From the IMG/VR virus record IMGVR_UViG_3300035661_000046, positions 1 through 64,000 of that record: a stretch of DNA of 64,000 nt; one strand, written 5' to 3'. Position 1 is the first letter of the stretch, and each line of letters opens with the position of its first letter. A model generated the notes under the pieces. That model made no database searches, had not been told where the DNA came from, and saw nothing but the letters and a program-made list of their open reading frames with translations. This stretch comes from a virus (taxonomy: Duplodnaviria > Heunggongvirae > Uroviricota > Caudoviricetes). The position numbers were made by a program, and so were the translations under genes. This document shows, one piece after another, positions 7,122 through 63,534 of this stretch.

Positions 7122-7400
7122 TTATAGGTACTGATCTAGTTCCTGTAGGGCATCCTCTTCTTCATACAAATCAATGTTACAAAGTAACTGATCCATTAAC
7201 TTATACCTATCAGAGATAACCCCTTCTGCTATCTCATAGATCGCAGTCATCCCTTGTATGAAGCTCGGGTCTTCCCCTAGGACATAGTGCTGTCCTGTTG
7301 AGGTTATAACTCCTACTTCAGAAGTCTCTTTTACTATTAGCATGTTTTTCAGCATATGTTGTACTTCTCTGTTTACCTCAACCGAGTAATTCATCATCAT
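7122..7400 (-). CDS. hypothetical protein
   Basis: 92-aa acidic ORF. Confidence 0.45.
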   Translation of the reverse strand: MMMNYSVEVNREVQHMLKNMLIVKETSEVGVITSTGQHYVLGEDPSFIQGMTAIYEIAEGVISDRYKLMDQLLCNIDLYEEEDALQELDQYL

Positions 7401-7424
7401 CCTTCTCCAATTCTACAATTAAGA

Positions 7425-7661
7425 CTAGTCTAAGTATGCGAACATTGGTAGGTCATCATGACCTGGACTAGCGAAACGCAGTCCCTCCAAAGCCGCGATA
7501 AACACGGAGTGGGGGCAGGCCAGCAGCCCGGACCTATGCTTGATGTCAAATTCAATTCCCGTATAAAATACGGGGGTTTCTATGGCATCAACGGCCCTTA
7601 TAATCTGCTGCTGAACGTCAAAAACTCTGTACCTAGTTTTCATAAAACTCTCCTTATTCAT
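7425..7661 (-). CDS. hypothetical protein
   Basis: 78-aa ORF. Confidence 0.4.
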   Translation of the reverse strand: MNKESFMKTRYRVFDVQQQIIRAVDAIETPVFYTGIEFDIKHRSGLLACPHSVFIAALEGLRFASPGHDDLPMFAYLD

Positions 7662-7962
7662 AGCGTTTCATCCAGAGTATGTGGCTGGCGAATCTCTGAG
7701 CTGAGCACGTCCACGGCGTGTGGCGTGTAAACTTCCACTCCTTCCACTCCACGGAGAGCGTCCACGGAACGAGGCGTGTAAACTTCCACGCCACGTTGTA
7801 AAGTCGTAGACTCCCATTTTTAGGGAAACTCATCTCCCTGCACCTCATAAAAGCCATAGCCCCACGGGCGTGTGCCAATAATAAGGTTTTCTCTCCTTTA
7901 CTTCTTATTTTGCGGCGTGTTGATGCCGCCTTCAGTAGTTTCGCTTGTTTCATGATAACCAT
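7654..7962 (-). CDS. hypothetical basic protein containing an internal direct repeat
   Basis: 102 aa, Lys/Arg/Trp-rich. The DNA carries a ~50-bp direct repeat (cgtccacgg...cgtgtaaacttccac twice, 7695-7795) encoding WKFTRxxPWT twice. Confidence 0.35.
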   Translation of the reverse strand: MVIMKQAKLLKAASTRRKIRSKGEKTLLLAHARGAMAFMRCREMSFPKNGSLRLYNVAWKFTRLVPWTLSVEWKEWKFTRHTPWTCSAQRFASHILWMKRYE

Positions 7963-8559: not shown

Positions 8560-9760
8560 AAAATTTCTGATGTCTGCAGCGCTAGCCTGGATGGCCCGTG
8601 ACTGTGTGCACGCCCGCACTACCTACCACTCTTACCCCTGACATCTCTGAAAGAGATGAGGTTAAAGTCCAAGAGTAACTCTTGGTTTACTACTCTAATA
8701 CTTTATGTTTTGTTTTGCTTAATAAACTTAAAAAATGTGTGTACATTGCGCGCCAGGTACCCGGAGACTGGGCCTCGGTTACCGGCTGTACATCCGTCGA
8801 AGACGGAATTGAATTCCCTAGAGTAACTCCAGGTTTACTACTAATAATAAATACTTTATTAAGACTTTGAAACTTTGAATAAACTCATGAGGAGATACTA
8901 TCTCTTCAGAAGACACGTATGAAAGTCCGTAAGTTTGGTGCAGCGCAACGTAGTGTAGCGTAACCAAGACTGGAGGATTTCAGTAGTGTAGTAAAATCTC
9001 TAGAGTAACTCTAGAACTATTGCTTAAGATACTTTATTCAATAAAACTAAGTTTGACGAACTCATTGAAGGTAGGTGCCCTTCTAGATCCACATCCGGCC
9101 GGCGCCTGCAGCTGACGCTCCTCAGGACGACGGGTCCTCCAGCATAGCTGGGGGTTGATATACCTGATAGTTACTATCAGTATTTTGTTTTAATACTTCG
9201 TCATTTGAAACAAGTGAAACTAGTTGACTAAACTCGATTGAGAGACGGAAAGACATGCATTTAAATGGACCATAGTCTCGTCTCTTCGAAACCAGGGACT
9301 GGGTCATCGCCGTCTACATCCGATTCCTTTGTAAAAGGAATAGTAAAGTGTAATTGTTACAATTACGATAATCAGTGTTAAGCCCACGCAACTTAAAACT
9401 AACCTAAATACTTTAGTCGTTGAAACTCTCCACTCTTACCCGGTGGAGATTAGGTTTACTACTGGCTTTCTATTTCTCGAATGTTACTACAAGTAACCTC
9501 TTTATAAGGGGCGTAGGTATCCAAGGATAGGATGTCAACTTGACCAGTACCTGATTGTACTACACAGATACCTACTTCAGGGTATTCTACTGCTGATGCT
9601 ATTATTGATCCAGTTGCCATCGCTATCTTATCCTTTTACAAAATTAATTAAAAAAAGAGTTTAAGTATCTTACCCGATAAATCTAGGTTTGTAATCTATG
9701 TCTAGATTACAGTTAAAAAAATAAGAGTAACTCTTATCCTGTAACTTACTGCAATGTGAA
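8560..9760. repeat. ORF-poor regulatory island with four copies of the palindrome AGAGTAACTCT and GC-rich hairpin blocks
   Basis: Palindromes at 8672-8682, 8820-8830 (one mismatch), 9002-9012 and 9724-9734. Each is followed by ggtttactact or AT-rich TACTTTAT. The blocks 8580-8650, 8745-8815 and 9075-9150 are locally GC-rich in an AT-rich genome. No ORF of at least 60 aa spans most of the island. Confidence 0.6.
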
Positions 9761-9895: not shown

Positions 9896-10138
9896 TTAAA
9901 CTGCAACTTTAAGACGTTGCCCCGTCAAAGTGTGCAAGGGGATTTTTGTTGCGTTTGAAATCTTTATAACGTTGTGTAAGCCTGGGTTGTAATTACTATC
10001 ACTACCTAGCTCTATACGACGAATAGTACGAGAGGATACTTTAGTCATGGACGAGAACTCTGACACTGACAAGTTATTCTTAATACGGAATCCCAGAACT
10101 TTAGTTGACATTACTTTGCGAGCTTTTTCGATCTTCAT
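9896..10138 (-). CDS. XRE-family helix-turn-helix transcriptional regulator
   Basis: LGFRIKNNLSVSEFSSMTKVSSRTIRRIELG matches the XRE/Cro-CI HTH pattern (...LSQ.ELA...GVS...IS..E.G). It is adjacent to the palindrome array. Confidence 0.6.
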   Translation of the reverse strand: MKIEKARKVMSTKVLGFRIKNNLSVSEFSSMTKVSSRTIRRIELGSDSNYNPGLHNVIKISNATKIPLHTLTGQRLKVAV

Positions 10139-10169
10139 TTTTGTTATAGTGCTTTCTAATTTACATCAT

Positions 10170-10205
10170 TGAAAAAAGAAAGGGGTTGAAATTAACCCCT
10201 TTCCA
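10170..10205 (-). terminator. rho-independent terminator (minus strand)
   Basis: Hairpin aaaggggtt gaaa ttaacccctttc followed by a T-run in the minus sense, just downstream of 10228..10908. Confidence 0.6.
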
Positions 10206-10963: not shown

Positions 10964-10974
10964 TTCTTATACCA
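10964..10974 (-). promoter_or_regulatory. extended -10 promoter motif copy
   Basis: ttcttatacca about 55 nt upstream of the 10908 start. Confidence 0.5.
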
Positions 10975-11876: not shown

Positions 11877-12080
11877 TTTACATCACCTTATAAAGAACCA
11901 TACATGTTATCATTCCGATAGCTAATCCTATTCCTAGGTTAGTCAAACCGGTACCTATACTATCTAAACCTTCAACTATTCCCATAGCTATGCTATCTGC
12001 TGAGTAAGTTATGTGGTCTTCTATAACTTCAGTCTCTCTGTCGTCCAATTTACGTTCCTTTAATTAGTTAATAAAAATAA

Positions 12081-12213
12081 GCCTCTGAGTTGGCCTAGCA
12101 AAATAAATGAGTAAGAATGTACCTATTGGTCTTCTAGCGCAAAGAAGTCCATACTTCCCCGCCTGCCCGTCTCGCATCGGTACTCATTTATAGTACTAGG
12201 CCAACTCAGAGGC
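12081..12213. repeat. long inverted repeat (18-bp perfect arms extending to ~33 bp) enclosing a 67-nt GC-rich loop; candidate structured RNA or miniature mobile element
   Basis: gcctctgagttggcctag at 12081-12098 and its exact reverse complement ctaggccaactcagaggc at 12196-12213. The match extends through taaatgagta/tactcattta. The enclosed loop ccccgcctgcccgtctcgcatcgg is GC-rich, unlike the flanks. Confidence 0.6.
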
Positions 12214-12226
12214 CTACCGTATCATA

Positions 12227-12772
12227 CTATAAATACAGAGAAATAGTATCTTGCCAGTTTTCCCAATTACGTATTCTGTCAAACCCAGTCTCTTTAATAT
12301 TATGAGGCTGGTCATACAGTAAGGGTATCCAGTGTGGCGTCATAGCGCCTTTTTGGATGTTATCATCTATAAGAACTGAGCCTCTAACTAAAGTTTTATC
12401 TCTGGCGATAACCACTCTATCTACCCATTCTTTCCCTAGATACTTTTCTACCCACATCAATTTCTCCATTGCACAAGAAGTAGAGCCATACAAAGGAGCA
12501 GTACAAATAATAGGATTTAGTCCCATTTTCAACATCTCTTTTAATGCTGAAAGTCCAGCCTCAACAGGAGGTATAGTGCTAAAGAAATCAGGAGTGTACA
12601 TGATTCTTCTGATTTGAGCACTTACATCAGGAGGGTAGTCGTCTTCCACGTTTCGGCTTATTCTATTCTCAGGAGTAACAACTAAATCCTTATTCATAAC
12701 TTTCAGACTCATGTTGTAAAAGTGCTCCTCAAAGTTTGCCAAAGGACCGTCCATATCCACTAATATTGCCAT
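12227..12772 (-). CDS. 5'(3')-deoxyribonucleotidase (HAD superfamily, NT5C-like)
   Basis: N-terminus MAILVDMDGPLANFEEHF matches the NT5C/dNMP nucleotidase DxDGxLxDF motif I. Size (181 aa) fits. Confidence 0.7.
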   Translation of the reverse strand: MAILVDMDGPLANFEEHFYNMSLKVMNKDLVVTPENRISRNVEDDYPPDVSAQIRRIMYTPDFFSTIPPVEAGLSALKEMLKMGLNPIICTAPLYGSTSCAMEKLMWVEKYLGKEWVDRVVIARDKTLVRGSVLIDDNIQKGAMTPHWIPLLYDQPHNIKETGFDRIRNWENWQDTISLYL

Positions 12773-13128: not shown

Positions 13129-13139
13129 TTCTTATACCA
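13129..13139 (-). promoter_or_regulatory. extended -10 promoter motif copy
   Basis: ttcttatacca about 35 nt upstream of the 13094 start. Confidence 0.5.
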
Positions 13140-13163: not shown

Positions 13164-13198
13164 GTAAAAAAAGAAGCCTGCTATTACACAGGCTTCAG
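13164..13198 (-). terminator. rho-independent terminator (minus strand)
   Basis: Hairpin gaagcctg ctattaca caggcttc plus a T-run, immediately downstream of 13205..14002. Confidence 0.65.
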
Positions 13199-32563: not shown

Positions 32564-32827
32564 CACTTAGTCTACTACTTTCGTAATAGAGTGGACTATA
32601 CCATTACCCTTTTCTAAAACACGCTTTTACGAGGGTATTCGCCGTATTATACCTAGTTAAAGGTATCGCAGCAAGATCTGTTCTAGATCTTCTGTCAGTC
32701 TCTGAACCATTTATACCAATCCCTTGGTATTCTGGCTGCTGATTGCCATACCTAGTATCTAGGGTTAGGGTTCCAGCAATTGAGCGAATTTTTAATACAG
32801 CATTACTACCGTATGGCACCTAAGTTA
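32564..32827 (-). mobile_element. group I intron (ORF-less, 264 nt) in the DNA polymerase gene
   Basis: It interrupts Pol A between motif B and the following helix. Predicted P1: exon ggcaU paired with intron GUGCC (U-G at the splice site). The intron starts taacttag and ends ...ctaagtG. It shares four conserved blocks with the rtcB intron, including a P7-like AUAGUCC element. Confidence 0.65.
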
Positions 32828-33783
32828 ATGCCGAATGTTAACGCTTTTGCTGCTTGTCTATAACCCTTATACTCCTTATATAAGGGATGTCCGGGATTAT
32901 CGACGATAGAGATAAACTCATCGTAGTCTAACCTTCGCATTGCACTAGCCGAGAAGGAGTGGAAATCCTTACCTTCTTCAATAGCCTTAAGTAAAGTAGG
33001 ATCCTTACATAGCGCTCCTAGAATCTTTACTTCGGCACTAGAGAAGTCTAAAGCAATAAACACATTGCCATCTGCTACCTTAAAGCATCTACGTACATTA
33101 TACCCATGCTTAGGTCTAGGTAACTGAGTTAAGTTAGGGTTATCACCAGTTATACGGAAACTACTAGTTCCGTGTAGGTTATAAGAAGGATGTACTCTAC
33201 CATCAGGCTTAACGTGGTCTTCTACGTAAGTCTTAATAAAAGTACGGTGAGCACTAGCAATGTCATTGCGTTTTGCTATATCTGCCAAGTAAGGGATTCT
33301 AGCAGATTTAACCAAGGCGGCTAATGCATCACCATCAGTAGAAGGAGATCCTGTCTTAGTTAAGAAAGGTGGAGTCAATCCTAACTCTCCGTATAAGAAA
33401 TCGCCTAGTGCAGCTCCAGAGTCTAAGTCTACCGGATGACCAATCGCAGTAAAAATAGAATGTTCCAAAGAAGCAATCTCTGCTTCCATTTGACGATTCA
33501 TTTGTCTATTAAGCTCGATGTCATACTCAATGCCATTGAGTTCTAAGTCACAGATAAACTCAAAAGCTGGCATTTCGTATTTGCGTATTGCTTCTAGTAT
33601 AGAAGGAATCTTACCCTTTGTTAATTTCCCATGAGTAGAAGTTACATACAGGGGTTGCTCAATAATTCTGGGAAAAGTAGCAGCCAGTATTTCTGAGGTT
33701 GTAATGCAGTCTATACCCGCGTACAGTAGCAAGTCTTCAACTGGATAATCTTCATATGTGTTATATATCGGTTTTTGTTCCAT
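32828..33783 (-). CDS. family A DNA polymerase, polymerase subunit, exon 1 (palm/fingers incl. motifs A and B)
   Basis: Motif A ALDFSSAEVKIL (DYSQIELR-like) and motif B RQAAKALTFGI(LYG). The tracked ORF reads into the intron and stops after ...FGINLGAIR. Confidence 0.7.
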
Positions 33784-35489: not shown

Positions 35490-36090
35490 AGAGTTATGAC
35501 TACTTGCACTGTAATTTTGTCCAGCCTGGACATGGCATGTCCCATCTAGAAAACACTTTGTCCACCTGTTTTCTTAATCAAATCATAGACTTACCTCACT
35601 TCTGGACAAAAAGACACGTGGACATTCAAAACAATATAACAAGTATTAAAAATAAGAATATCACTATAAGAATATTTCAAGGACAAAAGACAATCAGACA
35701 TTCAAAATATAAGCTACTTTGTGGAGAATGAAATACCACTATGAATTATGAATTATTGTTAACACCCTCTCTTATATATATAAATATACTTTTTAATTAA
35801 CTATATATATAAGGGATGGCTTTTTAGCCCAAAACAAATTTTTATGGCTAGAATATATTTCTCACAAAGTGTCTTATATTTTGAATGTCTGGTTGTCTTT
35901 TGTCTTGAAATATTTTTTATAGTGATATTCTTTTTTTTAATACTTGTTATATTGTTTTGAATGTCCACGTGTCTTTTTGTCCAGAAGTGAGGTAAGTCTA
36001 TGATTTGATTAAGAAAACAGGTGGACAAAGTGTCTTTTCGATGGGACATGGCATGTCCAGGCTGGACAAAATTATGCCTTTTTCTTTATA
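35490..36090. repeat. ~600-bp palindrome: ~215-bp inverted-repeat arms (over 90% identical) flanking a ~150-bp AT-rich core; candidate replication origin
   Basis: Arm 35505-35720 is the reverse complement of 35865-36085 (tttgtccagcctggacatg.catgtccca ... cagacattcaaaatataag). The arms carry repeated TGTCCA/TGGACA and GACATTCAAAA motifs. The core has nested TATATATA palindromes. It lies between the polymerase and primase-helicase genes. Confidence 0.7.
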
Positions 36091-47599: not shown

Positions 47600-47845
47600 T
47601 TGGCCGTTTAACCTTATTATTTTGAAAAAAGTTGGATCCTACAAAGCATCTAACCCGCATAAGGGAATAGCGGATCTCGTAAGCAAAACCGAGCTGTCAT
47701 GCTGAGTAGAATCCAATGAAAATGGGAATGTTCATCTGCGAGTAGTCCAGCTGTTTAACTGAAGTACAACCAATGATTACATTCCCAGGGGGTACGAAGG
47801 AGGAAATACTCCTTCATATATATCTTATACCAATTTCTAGGTAGG

Positions 47846-48031
47846 TTACTTAATACCCCCTGTGATCAGGTAGTAGGTAGACATTACTATTACTATGAAT
47901 GAGACCATTGTTATTGCCATTTTAAAATAGGTATCTACCCATTCTCGCGCATCCTCCGAAAGATTACGATACATAACGTACAACACTGCTACACTTGATA
48001 CTAACAAGACTACTGCTATTATTCTATCCAT
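47846..48031 (-). CDS. small membrane protein
   Basis: 61 aa with two hydrophobic helices. Confidence 0.4.
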   Translation of the reverse strand: MDRIIAVVLLVSSVAVLYVMYRNLSEDAREWVDTYFKMAITMVSFIVIVMSTYYLITGGIK

Positions 48032-60033: not shown

Positions 60034-60117
60034 GATTTTTCCTTTTCTATTAGGGTTATAAGGGTAGGAGTGTATAGTTCTCCATATATATGTTGTACCA
60101 TATTATGACCCTTAAAT

Positions 60118-62051: not shown

Positions 62052-63012
62052 CTATCCTTTTACGCACATCACTTGTTTTAGAGTATGAAGCACTGTTACT
62101 AAGTCATCCTGATTACTCATTACTGTCTCAATATCTTTATATGCCCCGGGAGTTTCATCTATTACACTTTCGTCTTTCCTACATTCAACACCTGCTGTAG
62201 CTAGCTTGTGATCCTCTATGGTAAATGTAGCTCTAGCTTTTGCACGGCTCATTGCCCGTCCAGCTCCATGAGAGCAAGAGCAGAAGGAGTCTATATTACC
62301 CTTACCTTCTACTATATAAGATCTAGTCCCCATGCTGCCTGGAATTATACCTAAGTCCCCATTACGAGCGCGTACTGCACCTTTACGAGTTATCCATAAA
62401 TTCCTACCAAAGTGATTTTCCTTAGCTACGTAATTATGATGACAATTAATAGCCTCTTTGGTTACTGTGAACTCCTTAGGAATGTGTCTGGATATTGCAG
62501 CTAATACTGAAGCCAGCATTGCCTTTCTATTCTCTAAAGCGTAGTCTTGAGCCCAATGAACAGCCTCGATATAATCATTGAAGTCCTCGTCCCCTTCTGG
62601 TAAGTAAGCTAGATCACCATCTGGTAAGTTGATGTAATACATCTCCATCTTCTTCTTGGCCTTCTCAATGAAGTAATTCCCAATCATATTACCGATACCT
62701 CTGGAGCCAGAGTGTAACATCACCCATACAGAGTCTACTTCATCCAGACAAATTTCTATGAAGTGGTTACCTGAACCCAAGGTACCCAATTGACGACTAG
62801 CCTTACCGATACCATCCCTGGCTATATCTGGATGTTTACCTAGAATTGGTCCTAAGTCTTGCAATAGAGAAAATCCTTGATAGTCTTTATGAGAACCACC
62901 TGTCCCCATAGGTATGTCTCGTTCTATTTGTTTACGAATTGTTTCTAATGAATCTGGTAGGTCGGCCGCAGTTAAACTTAGGCGTACTGCTACCATTCCA
63001 CATCCTAAATCG
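62052..63012 (-). CDS. rtcB: RtcB RNA ligase (3'-phosphate/5'-OH), exon 2
   Basis: In frame upstream of the tracked Met the sequence reads DLGCGMVAVRLSLTAADLPDSLETIRKQIE, matching E. coli RtcB DIGCGMNALRTALTAEDLPENLAELRQAIE. Later conserved blocks include MLHSGSRGIGN and CSCSHGAGR. Confidence 0.8.
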
Positions 63013-63316
63013 CGTTATTCCATTATTTCTAATGGCGTGGACTATACCATCTCTAAGGTCACTGAGTTTTATAGTCTCTACCTTAGGCTCGCCGTGTTAA
63101 TACTACACCTACCATACTTATATGAAGTATACCGTATTCCTAAATGAAAGGTAAGCAGGTAGGGTGTAGTATTCTGCACAAGTGTCTATAAAACACAGTG
63201 CAAGTCTCTGAACCATTTGACAATATCACTACTGCCTCTGGCTGCTGATTGCCCTCGACTATACGTTAGGGTTTCCAGCAATTGAGCGAGTTTTAAAGGG
63301 GCCGATTTTTTAGTTA
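63013..63316 (-). mobile_element. group I intron (ORF-less, ~304 nt) in rtcB, homologous to the DNA polymerase intron
   Basis: It separates ...IIPAAVGV from DLGCGM... (the two are contiguous in RtcB homologs). Predicted P1: exon aggggU paired with intron GCCCCU (U-G at the splice site). The intron starts taactaaaaaatcg and ends in G. It shares the blocks gtggactatacca, gtctctgaaccattt, ctggctgctgattgcc and agggtt.ccagcaattgagcga with the pol intron. Confidence 0.65.
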
Positions 63317-63534
63317 ACCCCTACTGCTGCCGGTATTATAGCTTTATCCGTAGCTATAACTGTTCCAATAGTACTTCCCTTACCTCCGTGAACGTCAGGC
63401 ATAACTGATACTTGTTTGTAGATAAAAGGAAGCCTGGACAAATTCTTAAGCTGAGTTAAAGCTTCATCTTCTATAGTATCTGTCCAGATTTTTATTGGTT
63501 TACCACCGTCTACTATTACTTGTTTAATACTCAT
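63317..63534 (-). CDS. rtcB: RtcB RNA ligase, exon 1
   Basis: LPFIYKQVSVMPDVHGGKGSTIGTVIATDKAIIPAAVGV aligns with E. coli RtcB MPFIFKHIAVMPDVHLGKGSTIGSVIPTKGAIIPAAVGV. Confidence 0.8.

Follow-up and report, generated by a model that had tools for sequence, protein, structure and literature searches.

A branched intercistronic hairpin with a terminator-like end is a candidate sense-strand RNA element of an uncultured phage

What is the role of a long inverted repeat between two genes of a large uncultured phage? The question was raised by an initial annotation of the 64,000-nucleotide stretch of phage DNA analyzed here (the window), which reported an 18-bp perfect inverted repeat around a 67-nt loop at 12081-12213 and offered a processed sRNA, a riboregulator, a MITE-like insertion, or a recombination site as explanations. 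The repeat was found exactly there. The 18-mer GCCTCTGAGTTGGCCTAG occupies 12081-12098 on the plus strand and its reverse complement occupies 12196-12213, with 97 nt between them that fold into a three-way junction. A repeat search of the window extended the arms to 36 nt each (12078-12113 and 12181-12216; 89% complementary and 67 nt apart). By chance, 64 kb with the composition of the window would be expected to contain ~3.8e-4 inverted repeats that are perfect over 18 bp and have a spacer of at most 200 nt. GC content is 53.7% in the 67-nt loop and 39.3% in the window as a whole, a value within the highest 1.3% for segments of 67 nt; the loop is GC-rich as described, but "sharply" was too strong a word. 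Folding of the minus-strand transcript, which had been proposed as a check, gave -77.2 kcal/mol (z = -10.2 vs shuffles), and the plus-strand fold gave -61.8 kcal/mol (z = -9.2 vs shuffles). By size the element ranks second among the inverted repeats of the window and is far larger than the simple terminators nearby, bearing out the remark that it is more elaborate than they are. The element is not an assembly artifact, because the same sequence recurs in independent assemblies of several samples (L001, L003, L004, L005, and L028).

The window is part of a large phage in which nearly every gene lies on the minus strand. It encodes a DnaG-type primase, ribonucleotide reductase, NAMPT, T4-type RNA ligase 1, and DNA ligase, and it contains a group I intron in the PolA gene (32572-32837) and seven tRNAs (ARAGORN), none of them at the element. 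Among cultured phages, its closest relatives are Vibrio phage D69 and Salmonella phage Arash, whose primases are only 33-36% identical to its own. The element sits between two minus-strand genes, as annotated, and its features are collected in Table 1. The stop codon of the upstream deoxyribonucleotidase gene (NT5C) is 10 nt ahead of the stem base, and the start of the downstream gene, g56, is ~30 nt beyond the end of the element. The g56 product is a small protein with a hydrophobic C terminus. This gene is the first of five small genes that reach to 10996 and have no consensus promoter of their own.

Table 1. Coordinates of the element, its substructures, and the neighboring genes and signals, listed in the direction of transcription.
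Feature	Position	Strand	Basis or remark
Nearest upstream consensus promoter, TGGTATAAGA	13130-13139	-	Preceded by simple terminator 13173-13196
NT5C, 5'(3')-deoxyribonucleotidase, upstream gene	12227-12772	-	Pfam PF06941, 6.6e-20; PHROG 2643
Whole element: interrupted stem P1-P3, three-way junction, U-tract at 3' end	12075-12217	-	MFE, alifold
P1 5' strand, columns 3-26, holds perfect arm 12196-12213	12194-12217	-	Alignment
P2 5' strand, AUAAAUGAGUA	12181-12191	-	Pair count
P3 5' strand, GAUG, pairs with 12116-12119 (CAUU)	12175-12178	-	Alifold
Junction strand, CGAGACGGGCAG, core CGAGAC-GGC invariant in 3/3 strains	12163-12174	-	Alignments
Hairpin B, GCGGGGAAGU-AUGG-ACUUCUUUGC	12139-12162	-	Pair count
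Hyper-conserved 3' block, 90-97% identity, A vs C	12052-12130	-	Sliding identity, alignment
Hairpin C, ACC-AAUA-GGU, within invariant 18-mer GACCAAUAGGUACAUUCU	12121-12130	-	Alifold
P2 3' strand, UACUCAUUUAU	12103-12113	-	Pair count
P1 3' strand, columns 120-143, holds arm 12081-12098	12077-12100	-	Near-invariant in three strains
U-rich tract UUAUUUUUAUU, directly past stem on sense strand	12070-12080	-	Identical in three strains
Shine-Dalgarno-like AAGGA for g56	12056-12060	-	~10 nt past U-tract
g56, downstream gene, 56 codons, TTG start 12046-12048	11878-12048	-	ORF list
Next downstream consensus promoter	10965-10974	-	Motif search

Several other structures were noticed in the window. A huge inverted repeat at 35512-36074, with arms of 212 nt that are 93% complementary and 139 nt apart, lies in non-coding DNA that separates the primase gene from the PolA-exonuclease/UDG gene; its center is AT-rich (TATATATATA), TGTCCA/TGGACA repeats are numerous in it, and it looks like a replication origin. 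The rtcB gene appears to be split into minus-strand ORFs at 63310-63534 and 62052-62996, whose 74- and 314-residue products, as encoded on an identical Logan contig, both match Pfam RtcB. The gap between them (63019-63347, minus strand) scored 49.8 bits with a group I intron model, against a gathering threshold of 50 (E = 9e-12), and with the one in the PolA gene it would bring the group I introns of the window to two. A 60-bp tandem repeat (4.6 copies, 92% identity) at the window edge, 1-274, probably codes for a repeated 20-residue unit of a protein that extends past the window.

Two uncultured relatives carry the element at the same site; we refer to the window phage as strain A and to the relatives as strains B and C. 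Strain B (L003, L004, L005, and L028) came from exact-match look-ups with NT5C and with a homologue 94% identical to it; the DNA of this strain is 94.8% identical over 3.5 kb. Its eight substitutions within 12078-12216 are all transitions, and the A-B pair alone is uninformative on structure. Strain C (L025, a 4.3-kb Logan contig) was found through the 96-residue downstream protein, of which it has a 64%-identical homologue. It keeps the gene order (NT5C C terminus, 178-nt spacer, g56, and g96) and has a much more diverged copy of the element. Its NT5C and g56/g96 proteins are only ~45-65% identical, yet the site of the element and the 178-nt spacer are unchanged.

Further relatives were sought as well. 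NT5C homologues in GenBank phages came only from unrelated Microbacterium phages. D69 and Arash are too distant (~35% primase identity), and the first 50 kb of Vibrio phage D69 had no match to the element model. The Band-7 relatives L017, L019, and L021 either stop short of the site or lack it. One contig (L035) was left out as too short, and extension past the window by way of its end genes yielded short contigs only. The distant Band-7 contig L017, which has an integrase and ParM, contains at 7370-7730, downstream of the gene, short repeats ~45-60 nt apart that each translate as MVKA..WDL(M/L)VGEG; these could be iterons or an array. A groundwater contig (L006) has a 44%-identical NT5C and, just upstream of it, an unrelated, very strongly structured region of ~230 nt (460-700), which adjoins a tRNA. 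This region is built of inverted repeats nested within one another, folds at -116.6 kcal/mol (z = -9.6), and matches nothing in Rfam.

The structure of the element was derived from the three-sequence alignment in the sense orientation with RNAalifold, together with an MFE fold. The consensus consists of a 24-bp P1, a 2x2 loop, an 11-bp P2, an invariant 2x2 loop (CC at 12179-12180 facing CU at 12114-12115), and a 4-bp P3, which together enclose a junction carrying the 10-bp hairpin B and the small hairpin C. Across strains A, B, and C, 97.4% of the cells for the 52 predicted pairs can pair on the minus strand. Five pairs are compensatory. In P1, pair 13/133 is G-C in A, A.C in B, and A-U in C. 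In P2, pair 35/111 takes the forms G-C, G.U, and A-U, and 39/107 goes from A-U to G-C. In hairpin B, 63/76 goes from G-C to U-A and 65/74 from A-U to G-C. Strain B holds the intermediates at 13/133 (A.C) and 35/111 (G.U). The P3 pairs 42/104 and 43/103 are retained via G.U/A-U changes. Every substitution in the 3' arm (3/3) and in the 3' strand of hairpin B (2/2) is matched by a complementary change. When the partners were slid by 1-3 columns, 0-1 compensatory pairs and 33-46% pairing were obtained, and the shuffle control gave 6/500.

With five compensatory pairs and all of the 3'-arm changes matched, the structure appears to be under selection; the pattern is hard to explain other than by selection for pairing, although three sequences do not amount to formal proof. 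The statistics of covariation are weak because there are only three sequences, two of them close, and the covariation support for an RNA motif is real if thin. The pairing of hairpin C is unproven because there is no covariation within it.

The strand on which the element acts can be judged from the same pairs. On the plus strand 83.8% of the cells for the 52 pairs can pair, as opposed to 97.4% on the minus strand, a comparison biased by the pairs having been taken from the minus-strand fold; restricted to pairs that are Watson-Crick in the window, the changes favor the minus over the plus strand by four to one. Three pairs of hairpin B (60/79, 61/78, and 62/77) are G.U in 3/3 strains, can form only in minus-strand RNA, and are unpaired on the plus strand. 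There are several further G.U pairs, and the majority of one-sided changes still allow a G.U pair in minus-strand RNA; in plus-strand RNA or a hairpin of DNA, all of these positions turn into A.C mismatches. The sole one-sided change favoring the plus strand is in strain B and is compensated in strain C. The favored strand agrees with the direction of transcription, the neighboring genes all being on the minus strand. The better minus-strand pairing and the direction of transcription make a sense-strand RNA the most likely functional form. The earlier suggestions of a processed sRNA or a riboregulator are thus supported, as far as RNA is concerned, by the compensatory fold, the minus-strand bias, and the elaborate structure.

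The element was annotated as containing no ORF. Two mini-ORFs do exist, one of 28 codons on the plus strand (ATG at 12107) and one of 17 codons on the minus strand, but strain B disrupts both (ATG to ATA and TGG to TAG), so no ORF is conserved. A 13-codon TTG-start frame in the 3' block was rejected as a gene because its stop is missing in strain C. The annotation had also considered that related genomes might carry the sequence as part of a conserved coding region; with the mini-ORFs destroyed in the relatives, we regard the element as non-coding.

The position of the element relative to the phage promoters was determined with a motif derived from the window, TGGTATAAGA and then (A/T)nTAT(A/G), which together form an extended -10 element. 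Fourteen strong copies of this promoter are present in the window (PWM scores of 17-30 bits), all on the minus strand and all intergenic. They lie at 60100, 52020, 47832, 45953, 42794, 35480, 27791, 23153, 20325, 13139, 10974, 9879, 8432, and 4064; the motif can also be written TGGTATAAG(A/T)(A/T)nTAT(A/G), and it has no clear -35. Several of the promoters stand directly behind simple terminators in PeSL-like cassettes, and the motif is kept in strains B and C. One of them (47823-47832), with a leader of ~215 nt before the helicase gene, is bracketed by a 17-nt inverted repeat (47783-47865, 82% complementary), which may be another structured regulatory region. A segment at 10139-10175, after the terminator at 10177-10204 and upstream of an HTH regulator gene (9896-10138), is identical in A and C; in it, a -10-like TATAAC hexamer stands just 4 nt ahead of the ATG, suggesting a leaderless transcript for a repressor-like protein. 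The motif scan detected no consensus promoter between the element and the next genes in strain A, B, or C, which places the element mid-operon. Since all 14 promoters are on the minus strand and none separates the element from the next genes, transcripts from 13139 must cross it. The predicted transcription unit runs from the promoter at 13139 through g106, NT5C, and the element to the five small genes.

The 3' end of the element resembles that of a terminator. A G+C-rich stem (GGCC...GGCUUAUUUUUAUU) is followed on the minus strand by the U-tract, and this arrangement does not vary among the three strains. A terminator-like site was flagged at 12097-12078, and the plus strand has no U-tract past the stem. 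Judged by sequence, a stem that runs into a U-tract in the sense orientation is the hallmark of intrinsic terminators. Ordinary terminators have loops of 3-8 nt. The hairpin is not compact in this sense, as its interior of 97 nt contains a three-way junction. It also provides at least 20 bp of double-stranded RNA with internal loops (24-bp P1, 11-bp P2, and 4-bp P3) in a mid-operon position, as expected of an RNase III site.

From these features we infer roles in termination or attenuation, in stabilization, and in processing. Our preferred reading, to which we assign a probability of roughly 40%, is that the element is an elaborate intercistronic terminator or attenuator combined with an RNA-stabilizing or processing hairpin, acting mid-operon as sense-strand RNA. 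During transcription, hairpins B and C would fold first, and the 3' strand would then close P3, P2, and P1 from the inside outwards. The product would be an interrupted helix of ~39 bp with its base abutting UUAUUUUUAUU. With B, C, P3, and P2 already formed, the last P1 pairs would close right behind the polymerase, so the long interior need not block termination. The hairpin would be an unusually long intrinsic-terminator-like element that works as a partial terminator, an attenuator limiting read-through into the downstream small genes. The NT5C message would be left with a very stable 3' hairpin, and the 24 + 11 bp of double-stranded RNA would make a plausible RNase III processing site.

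Several observations do not sit easily with a terminator. The interior far exceeds ordinary terminator loops, and an efficient stop would silence five conserved downstream genes; as these have no recognizable promoter, termination would have to be only partial or regulated. The two halves of the element are, moreover, unequally conserved. Between strains A and C, identity over the 5' half (12216-12131) is ~70-77%, much as in the genes (~73% at the nucleotide level, 45-65% for the proteins). The 3' block, which spans hairpin C, the 3' strands of P3, P2, and P1, the U-tract, and the ribosome-binding region, has ~4 differences in ~95 nt, as against ~30 in 85 nt of the 5' half. Taken alone, this block has no notable fold (z about 0). 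Were the element purely structural, neither 90-97% identity in its 3' half alongside ~72% in its 5' half nor invariant junction nucleotides would be expected, and the terminator reading leaves the extra sequence constraint on the 3' half unexplained. Elsewhere, A-C blocks of at least 90% identity are promoters and terminators, so that in these genomes conservation is in general highest in regulatory DNA; at an ordinary terminator (9705-9749), both arms are conserved, unlike in the element. The one-sided conservation suggests that something sequence-specific acts on the 3' half. Candidates for this extra role are a bound factor or partner protein, an RNA target, or a promoter/leader. The initial annotation overlooked this asymmetry together with the U-tract, the mid-operon position, and the covariation, and was to that extent incomplete.

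Three other explanations involve the 3' half. In a new class of phage riboregulator, for which the odds are well short of even, the three-way-junction core and the constrained 3' arm would bind a phage or host factor or would yield a 3'-arm small RNA, switching read-through into the small membrane-protein genes as a factor-dependent attenuator. Alternatively, the element could be a small-RNA precursor from a 3' UTR or intercistronic region, the long stem being a processing signal (e.g. for RNase III), the 3' half (12130-12052) the product or seed, and the 5' arm a mere pairing partner like a passenger arm. The strongly asymmetric conservation, the invariant sequence of the junction and hairpin C, the covarying stems, and the ability of the 3' arm alone to make a small hairpin with a U-tract are all consistent with such a precursor. 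We nevertheless consider it rather unlikely, as the window contains no complementary target beyond chance 11-14-mers, no promoter of its own was detected upstream, and the conserved block continues through the U-tract into the g56 ribosome-binding site, which fits a leader or cis element better. A third proposal is a degenerate promoter nested in the terminator loop, with GCTAGAAGA-CCAATAGG corresponding to the consensus TGGTATAAGA-ACTATAGG, or AGGTACATT serving as the -10, and with the 3' half as the start region and 5' leader for g56-g92. Read-through from upstream would then fold the full stem and stop, while internal starts would lack the 5' arm and escape. The only above-background PWM match in the element does lie at the same place (12139) in each strain, at 4.0 (A), 7.8 (B), and 4.4 (C) bits, and the invariant block begins just downstream of it. 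That the downstream genes have no other recognizable promoter, that other A-C blocks of at least 90% identity are promoters or terminators, and that a consensus promoter lies inside an inverted repeat at 47783-47865 would also suit this proposal. However, the scores are far under the 17-30 bits of the 14 real sites and do not qualify the match as a promoter of that class, and no site of the sigma-70 type was flagged. Strains A and B have TAGAAG as the -10-like hexamer, whereas C has TGTGAG and has lost the key -11 A, so that the part expected to be most conserved is not. Given the weak match and the unconserved hexamer, we find a nested promoter improbable and rank it below the RNA readings.

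Explanations at the level of DNA fare worse. MITEs, which are defined by terminal inverted repeats of at least 10-15 bp, a length of 50-800 bp, and the lack of a transposase, are present in a small fraction of phage genomes (PMC11602168). The element satisfies the structural part of this definition, with a size of 133-139 bp, terminal inverted repeats of 18-36 bp, and no conserved ORF, and a metagenome scan gave hairpins sharing CTGAGTTGGCCTAG with it. A TA is possible on either side (12078-79/12215-16), but as TA is its own complement and belongs just as well to the palindrome, it is not diagnostic of a target-site duplication (2-10 bp in MITEs); no longer direct repeat was seen. Nor is the element repeated. 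Searches of the window and of 250 kb of related loci with patterns and with covariance models R1 and R2 returned known copies only, and the other copies for which the annotation had advised looking were not encountered in GenBank phages or plasmids (blastn of the element) or, with arm 18-mer and gapped-arm patterns, in IMG/VR and 596 Gb of prokaryotic genomes (0 matches). Interior 17-mers gave chance or coding coincidences only in IMG/VR. The metagenome matches are eukaryote-like non-coding contigs with unrelated interiors, and the GTAG "REP head" is lost in strain C. A mobile palindrome of the MITE or REP type, possibly host-derived, is thus most improbable for a single-copy sequence with no clear target-site duplication that is fixed at one site, with compensatory evolution, in three lineages whose flanking proteins are 45-65% identical. 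A DNA-level site, i.e. a cruciform or hairpin for recombination, priming, packaging, or protein binding, is also very unlikely. The inverted repeat is long and perfect, and several metagenome contigs break in or beside it: L002 stops within the loop, L004 runs 55 nt past the element, and L027 begins just beyond it. Where two strains occur together, however, breaks at an inverted repeat are to be expected. The conserved G.U positions and one-sided changes fit a one-strand RNA, no recombinase or transposase is nearby, and the origin-like structure at 35512-36074 is far stronger. There was no positive evidence for the recombination site suggested at the outset, and that reading and the MITE-like insertion are unsupported for a single-copy element with no matches in the genome, phage, and plasmid collections searched.

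The scan in question returned five contigs (L007-L011) with foldback hairpins of 100-240 nt that share GGCTGAGTTGGCCTAG/CTGAGTTGGCCTAG with the phage arms; L008 matches the arm at 20/23 nt, including GGTAGG. These contigs are eukaryote-like, have no ORFs, contain microsatellites, and carry the motif inside a longer repeat, and the match is probably a chance resemblance to a eukaryotic foldback/MITE family.

Known classes of element were also considered. No Rfam 15 family matched at its gathering threshold, and up to E 10 only chance miRNA-precursor hairpins were returned (22 bits vs 122). An integron attC site (R'' RYYYAAC at the 5' side, R' GTTRRRY at the 3' side) was rejected: GTTGGCC precedes GGCCAAC on both strands, which is the reversed order, the boxes are internal to the stem with one mismatch each to the consensus, and there is no integrase nearby. 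REP/REPIN was rejected on the single copy and on the sequence GTAGGCC in A and B but ATAGGCC in C. There is no reverse transcriptase for a retron and no Ro for a Y RNA, the phage RtcB and Rnl1 lying 50 and 12 kb off. A 6S-like topology had no Rfam match and has too short an upper stem, the stem is too stable for a riboswitch, and a CRISPR-repeat mimic was unsupported.

The element shares properties with several described systems and is identical to none. With intrinsic terminators and the PeSL cassettes of T4-type phages (PMC2839356, PMC4122927) it has in common a G+C-rich stem, a sense-strand U-tract, an intergenic position, and a regulatory sequence far more conserved than the surrounding genes, and the same genome contains ordinary terminator-then-promoter cassettes (13196-13130 and about 20340-20316). 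It differs from these in its stem of ~39 bp, its branched interior of 60-97 nt, the lack of a consensus promoter after it, its very unequally conserved halves, and its presence as a single copy and not a repeated cassette. RNase III processing hairpins occur between the genes of phage T7 early mRNA and at the lambda sib site; the T7 sites are simple hairpins of ~50-60 nt without a three-way junction or U-tract. Like them, the element is an intercistronic hairpin of >20 bp with small internal loops on a polycistronic phage transcript, and cleavage would, by analogy, leave a stabilizing 3' hairpin on the upstream message. Unlike the T7 sites, it has a three-way junction and a U-tract.

As an imperfect palindrome of ~130 bp in transcribed intergenic DNA, the element is comparable to ERIC, Correia/NEMIS, REP/REPIN, and phage MITEs (PMC11602168), which fold in mRNA and can terminate or stabilize transcripts. 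Those families are multi-copy and mobile with presence/absence polymorphism, whereas the element is single-copy and syntenic and shows compensatory change. Finally, it resembles riboswitch and attenuator leaders in having covarying stems around an invariant junction, upstream of a ribosome-binding site and coupled to a terminator. In contrast to those leaders, its closing stem of -77 kcal/mol makes ligand switching hard to imagine, and no alternative (antiterminator) fold of the element was found.

The element belongs to no described RNA family in Rfam and is therefore a candidate new RNA motif. As it is known from one rare uncultured phage lineage, its general importance is modest. The near-invariance of one half of a hairpin beside proteins that are only 45-65% identical is nevertheless a concrete puzzle. 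If the proposed role is correct, a large phage would partition expression within a long operon by means of one RNA structure, which would be a terminator and a stabilizing 3' hairpin in one and might also contain a core for processing or factor binding.
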